This document shows positions 15,280 to 59,375 of a stretch of 64,000 nucleotides of DNA, piece by piece. Origin of the DNA: a virus. The DNA is taken from IMG/VR virus record IMGVR_UViG_3300037155_000096; one strand, given 5' to 3'. A program made the translations under genes and the position numbers. The notes beneath the pieces are model-generated. The model made no database searches, was not told the DNA's origin, and saw only the letters and a program-made list of their open reading frames with translations. Within the stretch, counting starts at the first letter, position 1, and the number at the start of each line of letters is the position of its first letter.

Positions 15280-16120
15280 ACGGCGCAAAGGAGTCGAACC
15301 TTCACTGAGACGAATAACTGCATCCACACCACCTAATAAGCCAAAAGCCTCTTGAGACATACTGCCTGCATCAGTTACTGCATTTCCATCAACCCGTCGG
15401 CTGACATACTAATCAGGTATACTTAGCAGCGATGTACTTCTCGGCTGTATCGATCCTATTGGGACTGATGACGCCATGTGTACCTCTTTCAGTATCCATT
15501 TGACCTTGGCAGGATCTGTCGCTATTATCTTCATCTCTATCTGGCTTATGAGGGCCAGCGCGGTTGCCATTTTGCTAACGCCGTATGTTTTAATACGAAA
15601 GCCCAGACAGTATTGCGACCGCTGGGCTTTCTTCCATATAACTTACTTGAGCAAGCGTTCTCGTCGACCAAACGAAATTGCTTGCATTAACTTAAACTTT
15701 CTTTTTGTCAGTGCCAACAGATATGGTCGCATCTGTCGCTTAGCATACATTTACAGGTGCCGTTATTTTCAGACACCGCATGACTCCTCCGTGGCTGCTC
15801 GCCTTTCTCCGGTTGAACATTCAGCTCTTATAAGGCTGACAGTATACTTGAATCGTAACACACCTGCAGTATTGCTACCGGCGGAATCTCTATGACCTAG
15901 CGTAACGCCCAGTCTACGATTAAGAGTAGCGTTTCCCCTTCCCGGCTATCCGCACGGAAACAAGGTTTGCTACAAACTGTGAAGAGCGTTGGGAATCTAT
16001 TCTGAAGTCTATCCGACCTTAGCGTAATTCAACCAACCTACGACATCAGCTCCAACCGCCTCCAACCAGTAAACTCATCAGGCACCGACGAATCGTTCAC
16101 GACAGACATTTTCAAAGCTG
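15280..16120 (-). ncRNA. large (about 800 nt) structured ncRNA, GOLLD-like
   Basis: No credible ORF; many hairpins with GNRA loops and G-U pairs on the minus strand (10-bp stem at 15597-15631; CGGTA-GCAA-TACTG at 15867-15880); recurring YUCAA segments; size and 3' sequence GCAGTTATTCGTCTCAGTG resemble GOLLD as recalled, not searched. Confidence 0.55.
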
Positions 16121-16817: not shown

Positions 16818-17074
16818 TCATTTATAATCTGAATACCAATTATTAAATTAAATTTTTGAATTCGAAATTCCCACCTTGGGAACTTCAGGAGCCGCTGAGG
16901 ATCTTTCGAGCCTCCATCAGGTGATGTTGGAGTATGGATTACCCGGAATGTGCTTGTAATCGCCGCGGTTCCGGGCTTATTTTTATATCCATCTCTTCGT
17001 GCATCCGATTGCGCAATGGTCAGAAACGTTTTTGTCAATCTCGTGGATACTTCAGGGGACCAAACCTGAAGCAC
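16802..17074 (-). CDS. hypothetical protein (start uncertain)
   Basis: fills the gap in the minus-strand run; GTG start. Confidence 0.4.
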   Translation of the reverse strand: MLQVWSPEVSTRLTKTFLTIAQSDARRDGYKNKPGTAAITSTFRVIHTPTSPDGGSKDPQRLLKFPRWEFRIQKFNLIIGIQIINECLRR

Positions 17075-17095
17075 CCACCCACCGTTAGCAGTAGA

Positions 17096-17464
17096 TCAAT
17101 ATATCTCGATATTCTCATCAAGTGTCTGAGCTATCGTTTCGACATAGCCGCAGCCTTCCAGTCTGTCATAATTTTCAACAGGCTCGTAGCCTTCCTTGAT
17201 TTTCGAATCCAGAATAGCATCGAACTCTCCGCCCTGGATATGCTCGACCTTGGGAGACAAAGCCTTGCCCCATCTGCCCCAAAATCTAGCCATCTGGGCG
17301 CCATCCTCTGACTTTGCCGTCATGATAACATATAGCTTGTCATGATTGTCTGACGTATTCTCGATGACCGCAATGTCTTCGATTCCGAAGTGTTTCATCA
17401 GCTGGTCAACAGTCTGAATGGGAGGTCTTGTATCGACCGGTCTTGCCGTTTTCTTTGTTGCCAT
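17096..17464 (-). CDS. WGR domain protein
   Basis: KLYVI..ARFWGRWG..LDSKIKEGY matches the WGR signature (WGR.G..K..KGY). Confidence 0.75.
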   Translation of the reverse strand: MATKKTARPVDTRPPIQTVDQLMKHFGIEDIAVIENTSDNHDKLYVIMTAKSEDGAQMARFWGRWGKALSPKVEHIQGGEFDAILDSKIKEGYEPVENYDRLEGCGYVETIAQTLDENIEIY

Positions 17465-29978: not shown

Positions 29979-30312
29979 ATTTGAACAGAGATTCCCTTAA
30001 TAACTCAACATTCGCCGCCACATCAATCTCTTCCTGACTCAACGGCATGGCTACCTTGAGTTCAGCAAGTGCCGCATACATCGGTTGGAATCGGTAATCC
30101 AAAATGATGCTGGAATCCTTTGAGATTACTTTTGCCACAACCGCAGACAGAAAATTCTTTTCGGAGTCATTGAGCGGCTCCTTGGCAATATCCGTTCCCC
30201 ACCAGATCGCCTGGATCTTTTCAAATATCTTCTGAGACAATTCCTCAGCTCTCAGTTTTTCTGATTCATTTAATGCCATAATTTCCTTAGTTAATCTGTT
30301 TACTTCCATCAA
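29974..30312 (-). CDS. hypothetical protein
   Basis: ORF in minus-strand run. Confidence 0.65.
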   Translation of the reverse strand: MMEVNRLTKEIMALNESEKLRAEELSQKIFEKIQAIWWGTDIAKEPLNDSEKNFLSAVVAKVISKDSSIILDYRFQPMYAALAELKVAMPLSQEEIDVAANVELLRESLFKS

Positions 30313-30715
30313 TGGTCTCTGTTGTGCCGCCCCACTGGGCTTTCAAGGCACCGGAAAAATCTCCCTTATCATCCGGAAAAATCATTCTGAGAACAGTCCT
30401 GCCCATTTCCTTAGCATAAGCAAACCGAACGGCATAACCTTTAGCAATCTTATCGTAAGCTACGCCTACGCCAAACCGTTTACCTTTCTGGATCTCCTCG
30501 ACCACATTATGCATTAGCATCGTTGCTGAATTCATGGGTATCGCCAGACAGATCTGTAAATCAAAATGTCCAAAGGATTCGAATACTCCATGCGTATGAA
30601 TGTTAAAGCCGTACGGAACGTCCAGCTCATCGGGAACGTAGTGGGTATAAAAGCCATATTTTTCCATGTACTCCCGAGTCTGTCGTTTCAATGCTTCCAT
30701 CGGATCTTTTTTCAT
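30287..30715 (-). CDS. DUF4262-like protein
   Basis: EKYGFYTHYV..FNIHTHGVFESFGHFDLQI..VLRMIFPDDKG. Confidence 0.7.
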   Translation of the reverse strand: MKKDPMEALKRQTREYMEKYGFYTHYVPDELDVPYGFNIHTHGVFESFGHFDLQICLAIPMNSATMLMHNVVEEIQKGKRFGVGVAYDKIAKGYAVRFAYAKEMGRTVLRMIFPDDKGDFSGALKAQWGGTTETIDGSKQIN

Positions 30716-31035
30716 CCTGTCACCTGTAATTCGGGTGGGGCAAGATATTCGACCACAGTGCTTATTTCGATGATTGCTTTCAATGCCGCGCTTGCAGCTG
30801 CAAAACTTACCTTTGACTTAGCCTCATCGAATGCTGTTTTCGTTGCCAATGCTTTTGCATCCGTGATGGCATCAAACTGTCTGTTCCTTCCTTTCAGGAC
30901 TAATTCAATTAGGTAATCGACATCTGATTCCAGGAAATACGGTTTCTCCACAACACCACATGGCGTATGCTTGCGGACCTTTTCCTTGAACTGGTCTATC
31001 GTAATAGAATTTTTCATGCGTTCTCCTTTTTCCAT
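30712..31035 (-). CDS. hypothetical protein (paralogue of 29095-29388)
   Basis: ITIDQF..FLESDVDYLI..GR..QFD. Confidence 0.7.
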   Translation of the reverse strand: MEKGERMKNSITIDQFKEKVRKHTPCGVVEKPYFLESDVDYLIELVLKGRNRQFDAITDAKALATKTAFDEAKSKVSFAAASAALKAIIEISTVVEYLAPPELQVTG

Positions 31036-31625
31036 AAATCGTCAAGTCTTCTGAGCTCGTCGACCATTTTCTGATATTCTTTTTTCTTCTTGAGCGGATG
31101 CAACATCCATTCGAATGTATATTTCGTTGCCTTGTCAATATCCACCTGACGAGCGTGCATTCCCAAATCGTTACAAATCCTGCCCCATTGCTCATCCGAA
31201 CTGGGAACGAACTTCTGGCGAGTGATAACATCCTCGTCGTCCACCACCAAATCCTGAAGCAAGTAAATCCTTGTTACTCCGTCATAAACGAAATAAGGAT
31301 ATCTCTTCTTGTTTTCTTTCGACTGTCCTTTCGGCAATCCCCTTACTGAACTTTTCAGTCCCATCCATGCTGAAACATCCCATATATACATGTGTTCAAG
31401 GTCGCAAGCATTGTAATTAAATCCGACCATACGTGTTTTGTCATCATCCTTGCCGTGTCCACCATAAGCCATGTCCGTCCATGGAGTTGCATGATACTTA
31501 TTCATTACTTCTTTGTCCTTGTAATCGAGGACATCCCAAATCGTACGAAAATTCTTTTCCATGAAGGATTGCATTTTCTGTGCCTCCTCATGGTCCTTGA
31601 ACATAGCGTAAACTGAATAGCCCAT
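31014..31625 (-). CDS. hypothetical protein
   Basis: 203-codon ORF in run. Confidence 0.75.
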   Translation of the reverse strand: MGYSVYAMFKDHEEAQKMQSFMEKNFRTIWDVLDYKDKEVMNKYHATPWTDMAYGGHGKDDDKTRMVGFNYNACDLEHMYIWDVSAWMGLKSSVRGLPKGQSKENKKRYPYFVYDGVTRIYLLQDLVVDDEDVITRQKFVPSSDEQWGRICNDLGMHARQVDIDKATKYTFEWMLHPLKKKKEYQKMVDELRRLDDLWKKENA

Positions 31626-31981
31626 TATAATTGCGCCTCCACTTCTTTTATTGCCGGCATATCTTCCAGACGTACTTCACTAACATTATCATATTTTTCA
31701 AATAAATCATGGTACATATCGACCTTATAAACTTCGCGAGGAATTACAATGACATTCTCCCCAATATTGCCCTGCCTCTCTGGTCTTTTCCAGTGGCATT
31801 CAAATCCGGTTTCCTTCGTAATCCTTTCAGAAATATTACCAGCGTGGTTCCATATAATCACGGTGACATATTTTTCACCATACTTCTTGCGGTAAACGTC
31901 CTTAGCGGACTGCAATTCGGATTCCATTCTGGAAATCTCCTGATACAATTCTTTCATGGACATGCTATCATAATTTTCCAT
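31625..31981 (-). CDS. hypothetical protein
   Basis: first ORF after the 32013 motif copy. Confidence 0.7.
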   Translation of the reverse strand: MENYDSMSMKELYQEISRMESELQSAKDVYRKKYGEKYVTVIIWNHAGNISERITKETGFECHWKRPERQGNIGENVIVIPREVYKVDMYHDLFEKYDNVSEVRLEDMPAIKEVEAQL

Positions 31982-32012
31982 ATTCGGTCTGCCTATGATT
32001 GTTGAAATTTTT

Positions 32013-32046
32013 GTTATGAGGTATTACTTACAAAAGGCGTGCTAAG
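32013..32046 (-). promoter_or_regulatory. repeated sigma54-like promoter motif
   Basis: CTTAGCACGCCTTTTGTAAGTAATACCTCATAAC. Confidence 0.75.
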
Positions 32047-32096
32047 AATTTGATTAAATTATCGGTGGGATGAACGTATTCTGTCGCAAATGTATG

Positions 32097-32462
32097 CTAA
32101 ATGTGCGACGAACAAGTCCATCGCCCGCCCCTTGCATAGGGCATAACCTGATTTAATAACGCCTGACACCTCCTGCGTTCTACTTCCCCTTTCTTCAGCA
32201 ACTCTGCCTTCAATCCTAAATCATGTTCCATGAGACAAACCAAACACCAGATAGCCAAAGTATCTCCGTTATGATGTATCGTAGACATCAGCATCAGTAT
32301 AAAAAATATCAGAGCAAGCGTATTCCATATACTCCAGAACACCCGTTTCCCGTAATTCTTCCTGATCGTTCTTTGTTCATATTTCAGGTATTCAATCATC
32401 TCAACCGGTGAAGCTGCACCAAACCATGTATCGGGCAATTCTTTCATTTGCTTGTCGGTCAT
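32097..32462 (-). CDS. membrane protein
   Basis: hydrophobic segment VFWSIWNTLALIFFILMLM. Confidence 0.65.
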   Translation of the reverse strand: MTDKQMKELPDTWFGAASPVEMIEYLKYEQRTIRKNYGKRVFWSIWNTLALIFFILMLMSTIHHNGDTLAIWCLVCLMEHDLGLKAELLKKGEVERRRCQALLNQVMPYARGGRWTCSSHI

Positions 32463-32797
32463 AGGAAACTCCTTATGTAATCTGCAATCGGGTTATCTAA
32501 TCTGCGAATTGCATCCGCTATCTCTTCTTCCAGCCCGGCCATTTCCGTGGCTAATCCTCCCTGCCATTGCGAGCCGATATGGCTGAACTTCGGATCTCCG
32601 AAGAAAACATGTCCCTCCGTAACCAGCAGACCGACCGTAGTGAATCCATCCTGAACGCTAAGGCATACCGTATAACAGTAGCCGTCATTCTTGACATGGT
32701 ACAAATAGTTAGTCATCTGATGTTCTTTCGGAGAGGTACAAACCGGTTCGTAAGTAACACCTTCGACGACAATGTTGGTATCTATGCTTACTTTCAT
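32459..32797 (-). CDS. hypothetical protein (paralogue of 32794-33132)
   Basis: YLYHV..YTVCLSV..TVGLLVTEGHV..SH..W..LEEEIADAIRRL. Confidence 0.7.
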   Translation of the reverse strand: MKVSIDTNIVVEGVTYEPVCTSPKEHQMTNYLYHVKNDGYCYTVCLSVQDGFTTVGLLVTEGHVFFGDPKFSHIGSQWQGGLATEMAGLEEEIADAIRRLDNPIADYIRSFL

Positions 32798-33132
32798 AAG
32801 TGTATCGTTAACATTTTACGTTTTTCTAATTTCTTGATCGCATCCTCAACCCAGTCCTCCAGTTCATCATTCTTTATCTTGAAGCCGGATTCCCATTCAG
32901 GCGGATACATCCTGTGACTTAATTTCCAATCTACCTTTACATGCCCTCTGCACATGACTACTCCCAGCGTGGCATTAGTTGCATCATTTGTAACATTAAC
33001 TGCAATGGTATATTTTTCGCCGCTTGCCAAAACATGATAAACGTGGCTAACCAGATACTTCTCCAGTTTGATTCTGGATACAGCCTGATAGCCTTCGCTT
33101 CTAAACATTAACGGGAACTTGGATATCTTCAT
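32794..33132 (-). CDS. hypothetical protein (paralogue of 32459-32797)
   Basis: HVYHV..YTIAVNV..TLGVVMCRGHV..SH..W..LEDWVEDAIKKL. Confidence 0.7.
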   Translation of the reverse strand: MKISKFPLMFRSEGYQAVSRIKLEKYLVSHVYHVLASGEKYTIAVNVTNDATNATLGVVMCRGHVKVDWKLSHRMYPPEWESGFKIKNDELEDWVEDAIKKLEKRKMLTIHL

Positions 33133-33133
33133 G

Positions 33134-33346
33134 TCAGTTAAACGGTATTAAATTCAGTAGTACAACATTCGTGACTTTATTTTCGGTCTGCAGGAAGTTC
33201 ACCAATTTCTCTACATCCTTGTCCTTACGGATCTTCTTCATGCGAACAAATCGTCCGGACGTACATGAAACCGATGGACTCTTCGCGCATTCATACGATA
33301 CATAATATCCTATTTTCCTATTTCGGCTTCTTAATGGTCTAATCAT
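33134..33346 (-). CDS. hypothetical protein
   Basis: ORF in run. Confidence 0.6.
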   Translation of the reverse strand: MIRPLRSRNRKIGYYVSYECAKSPSVSCTSGRFVRMKKIRKDKDVEKLVNFLQTENKVTNVVLLNLIPFN

Positions 33347-33397
33347 CAGGCTATACCCTTACTTTTCTTGAACAATATTCAGGTTATACCCTGATTT

Positions 33398-33850
33398 TCA
33401 TCCTTCACTTAATTTCTTCGCTATTGCCGCCCCGATATCGAATCCAACAAACTCCTGTTCTTTCGGTATGGGTGTGCTTTCAACAATCTGAGCCTCTTCA
33501 ATGCTGCCGTCCCCTCTTTCAAAGAATTCCCGGTTATGTCCATGCCAAAGCGGATACTTCGGCGGATCTAACAAGAACATAATGATTGCAATACCTTCTT
33601 CTCCCCATGTTTTGCGGACCACATCATTCATGGACATACCGAACTCTTCATAATTTCCTAAACGTTCCTTGATAACACTATCGAAGCCAATGATATCGAA
33701 TCCAAGCGGTATCGGTTCTTTAATCAGGAATCTCTCCAGATCGGTGCCGAACACTCTTTTGAAATCCTTGCCCTTGTACCGGCAGTTCTGAAATCTGACC
33801 ATCATATCATAAAATACTGTGCCGGGCTTGAGCATATCTTCTTCAGTCAT
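33398..33850 (-). CDS. hypothetical protein
   Basis: FDIIGFD..MSMNDVV..WGEEG..II pattern seen in phage hypotheticals. Confidence 0.7.
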   Translation of the reverse strand: MTEEDMLKPGTVFYDMMVRFQNCRYKGKDFKRVFGTDLERFLIKEPIPLGFDIIGFDSVIKERLGNYEEFGMSMNDVVRKTWGEEGIAIIMFLLDPPKYPLWHGHNREFFERGDGSIEEAQIVESTPIPKEQEFVGFDIGAAIAKKLSEG

Positions 33851-34091
33851 TGCCTTCCTTTATGAATAACTTTTCATTTAATTTCTTGTCAAGCCATGAA
33901 ATTCTGAAGGCTATGCCTATACAACACAATATCCAGAAGAACGTCAGACCTGATGCTATTGCCATAGCGCTCCACTGCGCTACTCCTGCGATTGCAAAGA
34001 CCGAGATACCTTGCAGTGCGGCTACGACTAACATTACTTTCAGTGTCTTTGCCCAATTCCATTTTTTCAATGCTTCCGGTTCTGTAATCAT
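33843..34091 (-). CDS. small two-TM membrane protein
   Basis: two hydrophobic helices. Confidence 0.7.
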   Translation of the reverse strand: MITEPEALKKWNWAKTLKVMLVVAALQGISVFAIAGVAQWSAMAIASGLTFFWILCCIGIAFRISWLDKKLNEKLFIKEGND

Positions 34092-34205
34092 TTACTTAAT
34101 TCCTCAATGAGTTAAAAAATGCCATGCTACTTTTATTATACACAAAGCTACGATTGCTAAAGCTACTTTCCATAAACATCCTGAACATCCCATAATACGT
34201 TTCCT

Positions 34206-35384
34206 TTATTTTTTCTTTTTACGTTTCGTTAACTGTGCTGCGCCTAATCTCTGATATGCAGATGGCTGTGTCTCGGACACCGGAGACTTTTTTGCTTTTT
34301 TCTTGGTCTTAGACTTAAACTTATTCGTCAAAGCTGCATCAGCATTAGCTCCGAGCTGAGCAATATCAAGTTTAGTAACGTTCATTTCCAGAGCGAGTCC
34401 TTCCCCCTCAATTCGAGCAGCAATCCTGTCAATGGGGATCATACGAGCCGCCAGATAAGCGATTCGCTCTTTAGTCTTATCAACATCGATACAATTAAAC
34501 GTTTTGGTCAGGAATGCTGAACTAGCCTTCTTTGTCGTTAATTGCAAAATGCTCTGGTGATGCAATATATACTCGTTTCCTTTAATCTCCTCCACATTCT
34601 CGGTATTCCCTAAGAACCTAATGATCGACTCTATCGTCTGACCGCCACTATCCCTGCAATATTTTTCTAATATCGCCTTTACATTGTCAACTTTCGGACA
34701 TTTCAATAAGTGTACTTTGCCTGACTCCCTGTCCTGCAGCGTAACATATCCGGATTTCTTTTCCATCGTGCCTGGCTGGGCTGTAAAATGCGTATAAACT
34801 GCAGTCGGAATCATATTCTCATTGCCAAGCTGTCCTATGATATGACCTACATCTTTGCCTTCTTCTGCCAGTTGTCGCGCCCTCACAAGGACTCGATCCT
34901 TCGATTCATGCGGAACGGCTATCGAATATGGTATGCTGTCCTCTCTGTCCCTCATGGTTATGAGGCAGGTTCCGGTATATTTTTTCGAGCCTCCGAAATC
35001 AATCGGAACGTGCGGATTCTTCAAATCCTTTATGCGTGCAATCTGACATATTCCTATCTTGACATATTTCCCCTCGTGAATAGAACCGATTCCTATGTCG
35101 GCTAATATTCTCCCTGGCACAACATCACCATCCTGAAGGGCTGCCAAATCGATGTTTCTACGGATATTTTTCTGAATATGTTCATCAATAATCTCGTCTG
35201 GCGAGAACACCGTTACCTTATCCCCGTCCTGGCGGTTCACCTTAGCTTTCAACTCCACGAGCATATTATCAAATTTCTTCGCAAGCTCGGGCATGCCTTT
35301 GGTTCGGGCATCTTCAGACAGAAATAACAATTCAGCCCAATTAAAGCCATTTACAGTGTATACGTGCTTTTCGGTAACTTCCAT
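34206..35384 (-). CDS. hypothetical protein with about three internal 55-60 aa repeats
   Basis: ITMRDRED..IIGQLG / VTLQDRES..IIRFLG / LQLTTKK..IAARIE. Confidence 0.75.
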   Translation of the reverse strand: MEVTEKHVYTVNGFNWAELLFLSEDARTKGMPELAKKFDNMLVELKAKVNRQDGDKVTVFSPDEIIDEHIQKNIRRNIDLAALQDGDVVPGRILADIGIGSIHEGKYVKIGICQIARIKDLKNPHVPIDFGGSKKYTGTCLITMRDREDSIPYSIAVPHESKDRVLVRARQLAEEGKDVGHIIGQLGNENMIPTAVYTHFTAQPGTMEKKSGYVTLQDRESGKVHLLKCPKVDNVKAILEKYCRDSGGQTIESIIRFLGNTENVEEIKGNEYILHHQSILQLTTKKASSAFLTKTFNCIDVDKTKERIAYLAARMIPIDRIAARIEGEGLALEMNVTKLDIAQLGANADAALTNKFKSKTKKKAKKSPVSETQPSAYQRLGAAQLTKRKKKK

Positions 35385-35420
35385 TTTATCTCCAATAACG
35401 GTTTAATCGTTAATTTTTAT

Positions 35421-35453
35421 GTTTGTAAGATAACTTACAAGAAACGTGCTAAG
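35421..35453 (-). promoter_or_regulatory. repeated sigma54-like promoter motif
   Basis: CTTAGCACGTTTCTTGTAAGTTATCTTACAAAC. Confidence 0.75.
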
Positions 35454-35463
35454 AAAAAAGGTA

Positions 35464-35788
35464 GTCAATACCCGACCTACGTAGCTGGTTCGATAGTGTC
35501 TGACCTATCGGATTGGATCATCGCCACCGACTATCAACAAATGCGAAAGGAACTGTTTCTGAGACGCTCCACCGAGGCATACGTTTTTGCACAAAGTATG
35601 CGTGAGCTTCAGTGCGAACACAGAGGTTTGCGGACTGAGTGTCTTTTCTAAGGACACTATTACCGCTAGACCATTCCTTACTCTCATGCTAGTATGCAAC
35701 CCACATGATCGGTTCTCGCAACTCTTTCAAGGATGCTGGTTATTGCAGCCACCTCCTAAACGAATTCCGGAAACTGCAGGTACTTGAC
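35464..35788 (-). ncRNA. candidate structured ncRNA (325 nt)
   Basis: terminal helix GTCAAGTACC/GGTATTGAC encloses the whole region and is followed by a U-tract; 6-bp hairpins at 35638-35658, 35577-35601 and 35491-35510. Confidence 0.6.
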
Positions 35789-35995
35789 TTAAACTTTCTT
35801 AATTTTAATCTGGCGCGGATCTGCCTCGTACTCAATTTCTTCACCGCCCAGTTCATTTATAATCGCTAATAACAAGGGATCAACTTCATCACTGACTTCG
35901 TGGAAACAGTTACATGGAATCAGAAACGTCATGTCATCATGTTCTCTTTCTCCAGTGCCATGGCATAACGGACAATCGTGGTTCGGTACTCTCAT
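35789..35995 (-). CDS. small zinc-finger-like protein
   Basis: CPLCHGTG..PCNC. Confidence 0.6.
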   Translation of the reverse strand: MRVPNHDCPLCHGTGEREHDDMTFLIPCNCFHEVSDEVDPLLLAIINELGGEEIEYEADPRQIKIKKV

Positions 35996-36026
35996 TAAGA
36001 TAGACTCAATTTGTTACAAAAATAAA

Positions 36027-37031
36027 TTATTCGATGCCAGTTGCCGGCCATTTCGCCGAGATTTCAGATATCTCTTCATCCAAGAATGACATCGCACTTT
36101 TGACATCCACCGGCATTATCTTCTTAATCGGTTTCCTTCTGGGTGCCTTCATCATCTTTTTCGTGGGCCAACCCTTTTCCTCAGCTAACGTTAATTCTCT
36201 GGGTGCTTTGGATACTCCCATTACTTCCATCTTCTCAATTTCTTCCGGAGTGAATGCTGGAGCCAATTTACCGAGCAATTCATCTTCCTTTTTAGACTTT
36301 CCTGTTTTCTTATTATTTTCCTTAATGTATGCCTTAATCAACGCCTCAGCTTCATCCATCTTATCAGAGTCAAAGCCTCCGCAGATCGTCCCAAATCCGT
36401 CAGTCAGCATATCGTAAGCATTAGCTGCCGCCCCGAGGCATCCATCTTCCCGAACCTCCTTCAGCCATTCGGCTTGAACAGCTGCATCAGTAGGAGATAC
36501 AACCGATTCAAAATATATCGCTGCTGGCAAATATCCGTCCAGACCAGCCAGTTCGTCCGCCTCTGATTTCCCGCCCTTAAATCCTATGGACATATCCCAA
36601 AAGAATCCTTCAGCGTCTTTACCGTCAGCACCGATTACCCGGTTCTCCCATAAGTAAACTATCTGCCAGCCATTATTATTGTCTTCCTTATATAAATCCG
36701 AAACTTTCTTATAAGTATCCGTCTCATCTACAAAGTCATTCAGCCCATCGTCCGTAATTGCCGCCACGTAACGATAAGCCTTCTGCCAGTCTCCCCTGAT
36801 GATCATTCCGGACTGAGTCTTGCTCTCGTGCCATTTTGCGAATAGCTTTACGAATGCCATAGCACCATAAGGCTGGGACCGTGGAGAATTCCAGTGTTTA
36901 TAAAACGAGGCGAAATTTACCTCCCCTTCTTTATTCTTGCTGACTACGTACGTCTGATGTCGTTGTCCCATCCTGTATCCTTTTAATAACTTGACTCTTA
37001 AATTGCTTGCTGAACGTAGATTGCTCCACAA
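36027..37031 (-). CDS. hypothetical protein (true start probably MGQRHQ)
   Basis: long ORF; the MGQRHQTYV N-terminus pattern occurs in phage proteins. Confidence 0.75.
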   Translation of the reverse strand: MWSNLRSASNLRVKLLKGYRMGQRHQTYVVSKNKEGEVNFASFYKHWNSPRSQPYGAMAFVKLFAKWHESKTQSGMIIRGDWQKAYRYVAAITDDGLNDFVDETDTYKKVSDLYKEDNNNGWQIVYLWENRVIGADGKDAEGFFWDMSIGFKGGKSEADELAGLDGYLPAAIYFESVVSPTDAAVQAEWLKEVREDGCLGAAANAYDMLTDGFGTICGGFDSDKMDEAEALIKAYIKENNKKTGKSKKEDELLGKLAPAFTPEEIEKMEVMGVSKAPRELTLAEEKGWPTKKMMKAPRRKPIKKIMPVDVKSAMSFLDEEISEISAKWPATGIE

Positions 37032-37116
37032 GCTTTAACTGTTGGTCTTTAACGCTGGTCTGCTCTTTAACAAATCGGGCTACAAATTCAATTTTCTTGA
37101 TTCTGCCTGGTCGCAT
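36931..37116 (-). CDS. small hypothetical protein
   Basis: AGGAG RBS; first ATG after the 37155 motif copy. Confidence 0.45.
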   Translation of the reverse strand: MRPGRIKKIEFVARFVKEQTSVKDQQLKLVEQSTFSKQFKSQVIKRIQDGTTTSDVRSQQE

Positions 37117-37154
37117 ACTTCTCCTATTTCCTGACTTGGGGTGTTATAAAATTT

Positions 37155-37188
37155 GTTATAGGTATGTACTTACAAGTTCCGTGCTAAG
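37155..37188 (-). promoter_or_regulatory. repeated sigma54-like promoter motif
   Basis: CTTAGCACGGAACTTGTAAGTACATACCTATAAC. Confidence 0.75.
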
Positions 37189-37217
37189 AATTTTCGGGAT
37201 TCTCTGATGCGACGGAA

Positions 37218-37902: not shown

Positions 37903-38172
37903 TTATGAAGTATATCTCAATAAAACTTTTGCGTTTATTTCCTTTTCTAAATGAGTTACAAATTCAGCAAGGGTTATCTTTAGGTGAGTGCATATTTCCC
38001 GAAGTTCTATTATATCTACTTTCCTTTGACCTGTTTCAATCTTACTAATATAGGATTGAGGAACACCTAGCTTCTTAGCCAAATCAACCTGAAGAAGCCC
38101 AGCTTTTGTCCGGTATTCAGTAAATACCTGGACAAAAAACTTATATTCCTTTTTATAGATACTCTTTTTCAC
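37903..38172 (-). CDS. XRE-family HTH transcriptional regulator
   Basis: RTKAGLLQVDLAKKLGVPQSYISKIETGQRKVDIIEL. Confidence 0.9.
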   Translation of the reverse strand: MKKSIYKKEYKFFVQVFTEYRTKAGLLQVDLAKKLGVPQSYISKIETGQRKVDIIELREICTHLKITLAEFVTHLEKEINAKVLLRYTS

Positions 38173-38197
38173 ACCATAAATTTATATCCTGATATCG

Positions 38198-38218
38198 AAT
38201 ATCCCATTTTGGGATATT
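38198..38218. promoter_or_regulatory. palindromic operator upstream of the XRE gene
   Basis: AATATCCCA-TTT-TGGGATATT, perfect 9-bp inverted repeat. Confidence 0.6.
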
Positions 38219-38220
38219 AT

Positions 38221-38300
38221 ATTGTCAATTAAACTTGCTCGTCTCCGGGCACGCTCCCGTTGTCGCTACGCCCTACACCTCACCATTTGTAAAATATGAA
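38221..38300. repeat. 80-bp direct repeat, copy 2
   Basis: 72/80 identical to 37797-37876. Confidence 0.9.
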
Positions 38301-44276: not shown

Positions 44277-44309
44277 GTTTGAAGATTATCTTACAATAAA
44301 CGTGCTAAA
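44277..44309 (-). promoter_or_regulatory. repeated sigma54-like promoter motif
   Basis: TTTAGCACGTTTATTGTAAGATAATCTTCAAAC. Confidence 0.7.
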
Positions 44310-44310
44310 G

Positions 44311-44331
44311 AAAAACCGGATTTCTCCGGTT
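44311..44331 (-). terminator. intrinsic terminator
   Basis: AACCGGA-GAAA-TCCGGTT followed by TTT on the minus strand, abutting the motif. Confidence 0.75.
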
Positions 44332-44860
44332 GTCAAAGGGCGGGCATAGCGGGACCGTAATTCCCCGCTTCTTTAATACAAACCTCCTATGGTTTCCCAA
44401 GGGTTTCAAGTTCCTCGGTTCCCCATTCTCCACCTTCGCTTGAGACGTCATCAGGCTGGAAATAATTCGTACGCATACTCGGATTTTATACTATACGCCC
44501 ATGTAAAATCAAAAGGCGGACGTAGCGGATTCCTTACCTTCCACAATTTCATACAAGCCTCCTGTCGGTACCTGTAACCCTTCATTGGTGTTCCGTCCCG
44601 TCTCTCCACCTATCCACACGGTAGGTGCCGATGAGCAGCTGTCTCAAACAGCAACTGACATGCGATGGAAATAATCTTGTATGCGTTCGTAGTTCGAACT
44701 GTACGTCCATTAAAATGTTATCCTGGCACCCGATTAAGTGATTACGGGGCTTCTCCTATCCAGCCTCATCTCCGCCTGCTCCAGATCGGGCTGCTCAGCT
44801 GATGTCTCATCCCTCCTTGGAAGGAAATAACTTAGACAGGCACATTCTTGCTATTATGCT
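44331..44860 (-). ncRNA. candidate large structured ncRNA (about 510-530 nt)
   Basis: No long ORF; closing helix TGTCTAAG/CTTTGACA; several hairpins (CACCTA/TAGGTG, GCTGT/ACAGC, GCGGG/CCCGC, GAAA-capped stem); ends at the terminator. Confidence 0.5.
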
Positions 44861-44873
44861 ACAGGACTTAATA

Positions 44874-58798: not shown

Positions 58799-59191
58799 TT
58801 ATAAAGTTTCGTTACTATTTTGAAATGCCATCATATAATCATTGTATTCGCTTTCAGGTATGTGCGGCAGAAAATCGCCAATGCTAATCTTGAACGAGGG
58901 TTCATACGGAGTGCCTGTAATCAGCGCCATAACTGATGTCAGGAAAATCAGCGTATGATCCATCGGTTGCGCCCACCACTCCATCAGAAAATCACAGAAT
59001 CTGTTTCTTCCATCCATGTGATTATTCTTCAAATTGTAATAACATGGTACGCCCCAGTATCGGGCATAGTTGCTATACTCCTTTACGTTTATTTTCTTTC
59101 GCATATTACCATGCCTCCTTAAAGACAATGTTGCGTGGCTGAATGACTCCATCTCTTTTAATCGGAATGGAATCATAACCGACATGCCCAT
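58799..59191 (-). CDS. hypothetical protein (start probably internal)
   Basis: ORF in run. Confidence 0.55.
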   Translation of the reverse strand: MGMSVMIPFRLKEMESFSHATLSLRRHGNMRKKINVKEYSNYARYWGVPCYYNLKNNHMDGRNRFCDFLMEWWAQPMDHTLIFLTSVMALITGTPYEPSFKISIGDFLPHIPESEYNDYMMAFQNSNETL

Positions 59192-59375
59192 CTTGTCCGC
59201 AGTTAGAACATCTGTAATGATATAACCCCGGACTAGTATACAGTACCGTTCCTGTCAGCTGGAGAGTTTTCTCCTTATCGCATATCGGGCATTTGCTTTG
59301 TTCAAGAAATTGCGTAAACATAACAGGGGAGGGGAGAGGCTGTCCCACCTCCACCTCAATATCTTTTTCTATCAT
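59106..59375 (-). CDS. small zinc-finger protein
   Basis: CPIC..CSNC. Confidence 0.65.
   Translation of the reverse strand: MIEKDIEVEVGQPLPSPVMFTQFLEQSKCPICDKEKTLQLTGTVLYTSPGLYHYRCSNCGQDGHVGYDSIPIKRDGVIQPRNIVFKEAW

Follow-up and report, generated by a model that had tools for sequence, protein, structure and literature searches.

A 325-nucleotide non-coding stretch between two gene cassettes of an uncultured peat phage, tentatively read as a 3' untranslated tail

Gene cassettes and putative promoter motifs around the stretch

The sequence analyzed here, called the window throughout, is a 64,000-nucleotide stretch of DNA from the IMG/VR virus record IMGVR_UViG_3300037155_000096. An earlier reading of its letters alone, hereafter the original prediction, had singled out 325 bases of the minus strand, lying between the last gene of one small cassette and the putative promoter of the next, as a strong candidate for a new multi-branched phage RNA. 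The elements of the locus are given below in the order in which the minus strand is read.

37172-37187, minus strand: copy of the putative promoter motif TTAGCACG-N4-TTGT that heads the cassette (motif scan)
36931-37116: 61-aa ORF, overlapping the start of the 334-aa gene
36027-37031, minus strand: gene for a protein of 314-334 aa (ORF list)
35789-35995, minus strand: 68-aa Cys-rich ORF (CxxC .. CxC), final gene of the cassette; its TAA at 35789-35791 abuts the 325-nt stretch
35464-35788, minus strand: 325-nt gene-free stretch (RNA position 1 is 35788), with no credible ORF and no Rfam match, covered in RNA libraries
35777-35788, minus strand: 5' strand of the end-to-end helix, GUCAAGUACCUG (minimum free energy (MFE) fold and pair probabilities), invariant in nine haplotypes
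35464-35474, minus strand: 3' strand of the end-to-end helix, CGGGUAUUGAC (MFE fold and pair probabilities)
35454-35459, minus strand: T6 run between the stretch and the next putative promoter, kept in all relatives
35437-35452, minus strand: next copy of TTAGCACG-N4-TTGT, the cassette boundary and apparent recombination point (motif scan; homology switch)
35384: start of a 392-aa ORF, downstream of the motif copy at 35437-35452

The stretch had been described as starting on the base after a stop codon and as being followed by a motif copy, and both placements hold: RNA position 1 directly follows the TAA of the 68-aa ORF, and beyond the far end the minus strand reads UACC, the T6 run and then the motif copy. 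Most copies of the motif in this genome lie 0-70 nt past the preceding stop codon; the gap here, 336 nt from stop to motif, is one of the few exceptions.

A Pfam search with the 68-aa ORF returned a weak zinc-finger match and nothing else, and its protein cluster has nine members, all of one lineage, that of the window. The 334-aa protein has no Pfam match. Homologues with identities of 25-32% were found for it on other large phage contigs, up to 319 kb long; its fold model is poor (pLDDT 54) and matched nothing in the PDB, hence it yields no functional clue. Two invariant motifs, MGQRH..TYV and EDNNNGWQIVY, mark the family, which is uncharacterized. Its members of 207-221 aa reside near polyA-polymerase/HD and DUF4240 genes (loci L010-L013), and the version in the window carries an additional lysine-rich C-terminal extension of 100 aa. 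At these distant loci there is no gap downstream of the gene, hence they provide no homologue of the RNA. For the 392-aa and 68-aa neighbours, nothing related turned up beyond their own clusters.

The motif scan found 15 copies of TTAGCACG-N4-TTGT in the window (1998-61343), all on the minus strand, where 1.1 were expected. They stand nearly always directly ahead of a run of genes, and the motif is therefore very probably the element's own promoter. The copies, which can be written more fully as TTAGCACG-N4-TTGT(AAGT), have A/T-rich bases just upstream and share a common leader. The motif resembles the sigma54 -24/-12 layout, with GG replaced by AG and GC by GT.

Alignment of the window with its relatives, 26 contigs described below, shows homology from 38225 to 35409 that resumes at 29979, the switch falling at about 35409-35433. 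The intervening segment of about 5.4 kb (29980-35408) is present in the window strain and absent from all 24 related contigs that extend past the 325 bases. Its content is the 392-aa gene plus about a dozen small ORFs, arranged as two cassettes with a motif copy at the head of each, and its breakpoints sit in motif copies and their leader. Judging from these alignments, the motif copies seem to act as recombination points at which cassettes are gained and lost. The relatives keep the 325 bases beside the 68-aa gene without the downstream 5.4 kb, and the stretch therefore belongs to the upstream unit.

A joint from position 35454 to 37167 in run X3 was considered as a possible deletion of the cassette and was rejected, one of its sides being only 24 letters long and the joint consisting of two promoter-like words. 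The contig in question, of 16 kb and high depth from a related sample, carries these words in tandem (they match 35429-35454 and 37167-37190) between unrelated flanks, and is probably another locus with twin promoters rather than a cassette deletion.

Above 38225 the strains differ fully. One related contig (L003, 1-1636) has PNP_UDP_1 and EAD1 genes there; two others (1-1770) have HEPN_AbiU2 (L007) and a trypsin-TPR gene (L005), and the window strain has other genes, on the plus strand. This region looks like a variable defence-like island beside two XRE-type regulators.

Related contigs and RNA libraries

Relatives of the locus were recovered through the neighbouring proteins. Peat, soil and wetland assemblies yielded 26 such contigs, all of a single narrow lineage and 95-98% identical to the window; a scan of JGI metagenomes gave three near-identical contigs and nothing further. 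No relative was found among INPHARED phages by DNA and protein searches, in IMG/VR using both neighbouring proteins, the family alignment and a core word, or among GTDB genomes using the family alignment and the core word. The statement that the stretch belongs to no known family was upheld: Rfam 15 gave no match at gathering threshold on the whole window, and a search of 35250-36050 under permissive filters gave a single row, a chance match at E = 9.5 that lies outside the stretch, leaving none within it at E = 10. A tRNA-like identity was rejected after ARAGORN found none. The 325 bases hold no internal or tandem repeat and no iterons, and have no second copy or paralogue within the window.

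All 26 contigs keep the 325 bases directly after the 68-aa gene and without a single indel. Variation is confined to eight sites, of which three are unpaired in the MFE fold, three change a pair to a wobble and two break a pair. Two of these changes affect the end helix, namely A324G (U2-A324 becoming a U-G wobble), present in 20 of 25 contigs, and A320U, which breaks a pair without compensation in three contigs. Across nine haplotypes, 100 of the 105 MFE pairs are invariant, three show a one-sided change and two are broken, with no compensatory change among them. The haplotypes diverge too little for a covariation test and no pair changes on both sides, therefore covariation neither supports nor refutes the fold. 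The proportion of variable sites is 1.5-2.5% in the stretch versus 7-7.7% in the 68-aa gene. We considered purifying selection as the reason for this low value and dropped it, as diversity in this lineage is a mosaic in which coding stretches of 100-300 nt are equally invariant.

Evidence at the RNA level comes from contigs of two metatranscriptomes, one from soil (X15) and one from a wetland (X16, a related strain); such contigs give neither strand, level nor true ends, and DNA carry-over is possible. Those of X15 cover 35464-35805 and 35984-36234, and those of X16 cover 35433-35601 and 35794-36715. None starts at 35788. The one that crosses the stop codon, in X15, extends 17 nt to its upstream side, to 35805, which is short of the 31 letters demanded by our bridging rule. 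At the other side, the first X15 record (35464-35675), which matches the window exactly, stops at 35464 and has neither a loose end nor a neighbour that overlaps it. The base of the end helix lies at this position, with the U-run starting 5 nt further on, and a 3' end near 35464 is thus hinted at once, by a single contig of run X15. Record 6 of X16, from the related strain, reads across the T-run and the motif into the next cassette; termination is therefore leaky or absent in that strain.

Another X16 contig (35490-35601, depth 12.7) runs into the Illumina adaptor at 35601, and several reads must therefore share an insert end there. This point is RNA position 188, where the GCAUAC hairpin has its foot; it may be a site of processing, or the reads may be PCR copies of one fragment. 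X15 has no RNA contigs over the 392-aa gene; we regard this as a hole in contig cover and have not taken it as evidence.

Coding potential and predicted fold

Four ORFs of 64-95 codons overlap the stretch, and the number of long open frames is not unusual. Their codon scores range from -0.11 to +0.02, compared with 0.15 +/- 0.11 for small genes in this genome and -0.14 for antisense artefacts, and none has a Pfam or PHROG match, in agreement with the original view that they are spurious. The only frame on the same strand is the 70-aa ORF (codon score -0.03), which is closed by a TAG in five of the 26 contigs, the window among them, and open in the other 21 owing to a single A-to-U change that turns the TAG into TTG. 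No homologue of it was found among 1.84 billion representatives. Open frames of at least 60 codons are common by chance here, and the depletion of stop codons is not significant. A six-frame comparison with the window and related loci gave nothing significant, the best match having E = 0.02 in a tiny database. We regard the 325-nt stretch as non-coding.

The original prediction rested largely on pairing, and its description of that pairing is accurate. GUCAAGUACC, at the 5' end of the stretch, pairs with GGUAUUGAC at 35472-35464, and the complete end-to-end helix joins positions 1-12 to 315-325 with one bulge; it is part of the MFE fold, with a probability of 0.94-0.99 for most pairs. The listed hairpins are likewise all present, three of them as exact 6-bp stems, while two (TCAGT/ACTGA and TGCAG/CTGCA) are unused in the MFE fold. 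It is the comparison with chance that these features do not survive. An end duplex of equal strength forms in 1-15% of shuffles and in 0.5-8% of real windows, the value varying with the number of end bases admitted. At least three perfect 6-bp hairpins were counted in 4.5% of shuffles and in 9% of the real windows.

The same applies to stability. The MFE of the stretch is -97.4 kcal/mol (z = -1.46), a value matched by 8 of 100 shuffles, and the opposite strand gives z = -1.0. Among 28 arbitrary 325-nt windows of the minus strand, the mean z is -0.61 (sd 1.8) and 29% lie at -1.46 or lower. When the upstream ORF is attached, the resulting 556-nt fold has z = +0.85. Structured RNAs are generally recognized by a folding energy clearly below that of both shuffled and neighbouring sequence, and that of the 325 bases is not. 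Nothing supports a fold better than that of ordinary sequence of the same phage; since stability, helix and hairpin count all fall within the genome background and no compensatory change occurs, the rating as a strong candidate for a multi-branched RNA does not stand. Some background windows of the minus strand fold far better than the stretch, with z of about -6.1 at 58976-59300, -4.0 at 37976-38300 and -4.0 at 16976-17300 (30 shuffles each).

In the centroid of the 556-nt fold the end helix is retained, and is lengthened by AAGAAAG, from the last codons of the 68-aa gene, which pairs with the U-run. It is the only conserved helix that adjoins this run, from which it is separated by 4 nt, a non-canonical geometry for a terminator. 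An intrinsic terminator would consist of a compact G+C-rich hairpin followed directly by a U-run, and the scan of 35454-35500 found no such hairpin. A local 5-bp hairpin (51-nt fold, -8.3 kcal/mol) exists only in the window strain and is absent in the relatives. Compact hairpin-plus-U terminators do stand directly before the promoter motif in two other cassettes, at 44308 and 7525. Because A/T-rich bases precede most copies of the motif, the T6 run may belong to the promoter; from its position it may be a terminator U-tract or the A/T-rich bases at the upstream side of the promoter, and it may also be both.

Interpretation of the stretch

The reading that we prefer, with a probability of roughly 0.45, is that the 325 bases form an untranslated 3' tail to the cassette of the 61-, 334- and 68-aa genes, and that any function they have lies at the 3' end. 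The transcription unit would then run from the promoter at 37187 through the three genes and the tail to the T-run, the next promoter being at 35452. Scans of the 5' side of the stretch found neither the promoter motif nor a sigma-70-like site, which implies that RNA over the tail starts at the 37187 promoter; the tail would thus be transcribed together with the three genes, or right after them. The first 12 bases past the stop codon are predicted to pair with the last 11 before the U-run, by which the 3' end would be tucked into a helix. Such a helix could block 3' exonucleases, and may also aid release of the polymerase, perhaps as a weak terminator, without a compact terminator hairpin.

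Several observations argue for this reading. The stretch fills the space from the stop codon at 35789 to the T-run and the promoter motif, and it travels with the upstream genes in the relatives. The end helix is likely in the excised RNA and stays in the 556-nt centroid, and the exact X15 contig ends at its base. The cassette has no conserved compact terminator, unlike those at 44308 and 7525. On the other side, 325 nt is far beyond the length needed for protection of an end, and three of the 26 contigs have an uncompensated break in the end helix. In addition, the dead end at 35464 is a single contig of a single run, and RNA of the relative in X16 reads through.

Long 3' UTRs and operon tails are known from bacterial and phage mRNAs, in which 3' stems block exonucleases, and some of them yield 3'-UTR-derived small RNAs. 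The stretch is likewise non-coding sequence past the last stop codon, ends at a U-run, has a helix holding its 3' end and appears in RNA libraries; it differs in that the helix is a long-range one (positions 1-12 with 315-325) instead of a compact hairpin, and in that 325 nt is longer than typical. As with Rho-independent terminators, a helix followed by a U-run stands at the end of the unit and directly before the next promoter, but here the compact G+C-rich hairpin at the U-run is lacking and RNA of a relative reads through. In the sib/tI retroregulation of phage lambda, a 3'-terminal structure lies downstream of a phage gene, and the full helix requires that transcription proceeds far enough. 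The arrangement here is similar, the AAGAAAG at the end of the 68-aa gene being able to pair with the U-run, but there is no sequence relation, nor any sign here of RNase III cleavage or of two transcript classes. Within the same genome, the tail at 44311-44870 has the same layout of stop codon, long gene-free stretch, U-run and promoter motif; the two have no sequence similarity, and an internal repeat is absent from 35464-35788.

It is also conceivable, albeit rather unlikely, that the 325 bases are a spacer devoid of function, either what decay has left of a lost gene or a product of the shuffling of cassettes at promoter-motif copies, and carried along within a conserved block. Neither a structural nor a coding signal rises above background, and cassettes are gained and lost between promoter motifs in this lineage, as exemplified by the 5.4 kb of the window that the relatives do not have. 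The low variation of the stretch is not exceptional, being equalled by coding segments of 100-300 nt, and a frame open in 21 contigs and closed by a TAG in five would fit a dying ORF. Yet the 70-aa frame has no homologue and its codon usage is unlike that of genes, open frames of this length are common by chance, and the six-frame comparison reveals no paralogue. Moreover, most promoter copies lie close behind a stop codon, so that a useless gap of 336 nt would be expected to have been trimmed, and not one indel has accumulated in 26 contigs.

We consider it doubtful that the stretch is released from the 3' end of the cassette transcript as a discrete, specifically folded RNA that measures about 325 nt, has the terminal helix as its closing stem and serves a lineage-specific function. 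Such an RNA would be restricted to the lineage, with the helix defining a mature 3' end at 35464, and would represent a new class without Rfam relative and one of several operon-tail RNAs. The stretch is ORF-free, present in RNA libraries and kept without indels; its helix joins the first base past the stop codon to the last bases before the U-run, the X15 contig ends exactly at the base of this helix, hairpins are mildly enriched (4.5% of shuffles reach their number), and three of five changes at paired positions preserve pairing as wobbles. Against this, a z of -1.46 is ordinary for the genome and becomes +0.85 in the transcript context, and the changes at paired positions include two that break pairs and none that compensates. 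Rfam yields nothing even at E = 10, the window has no paralogue, and the collections searched gave no copy outside one narrow lineage. No RNA 5' end was seen at 35788, past which one contig extends by 17 nt. The large RNAs GOLLD, ROOL, HEARO and OLE are alike in size (hundreds of nucleotides) and in their phage or mobile-element setting; the stretch has neither an Rfam match nor exceptional fold stability or covariation.

It is very improbable that the stretch hides a small protein gene, whether this be one of the 64-95-aa ORFs or the 70-aa ORF that the majority haplotype has on the same strand. The 70-aa ORF is open in most contigs, and an AGGAGG word occurs at RNA positions 32-37. This word is 21 nt from the TTG start, however, and the in-frame AUG has no ribosome-binding site; the TAG interrupts the frame in five contigs, including the window. 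Gene callers call the 70-aa frame in no contig, the 95-aa ORF on the plus strand loses its start in the relatives, and the codon scores and protein searches described above are those of non-genic sequence.

A DNA-level element, whether a MITE-like non-autonomous insert with 10-bp inverted ends or a site for protein binding or replication, is most improbable. Inverted ends (GTCAAGTACC / GGTATTGAC) do bound the stretch exactly, but it is single-copy in the window, has no target-site duplication and contains no iterons or tandem repeats. An empty site was seen in none of the 26 contigs, nor does any read joint skip the stretch. On copy number, target duplication and empty sites alike, a MITE-like insert does not fit.

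If the tail only marks and protects the end of a transcript, as in the untranslated-tail reading that we prefer, it would be nothing out of the ordinary, although the uncultured peat phage or phage-plasmid that carries it, of about 185 kb, is unusual. It is still of use for reading this genome, in which the genes stand in cassettes with the same sigma54-like motif at the head of each; cassettes are swapped between motif copies, and a few of the cassettes have long non-coding tails. If a stable folded RNA were found in any one of these tails, this genome would become a source of new phage RNAs; for this particular tail, which is non-coding, conserved in place and found in RNA libraries, there is no computational reason to expect one.

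The junction between the end of the 68-aa gene and the start of the 325 bases, AAGAAAGTTTAAGT, recurs as an exact 14-nt copy at 15690-15703 on the minus strand, in another gene-free block where no ORF ends. About 0.1 chance matches of this kind are expected, and the copy continues with loose similarity for about 30 nt more.
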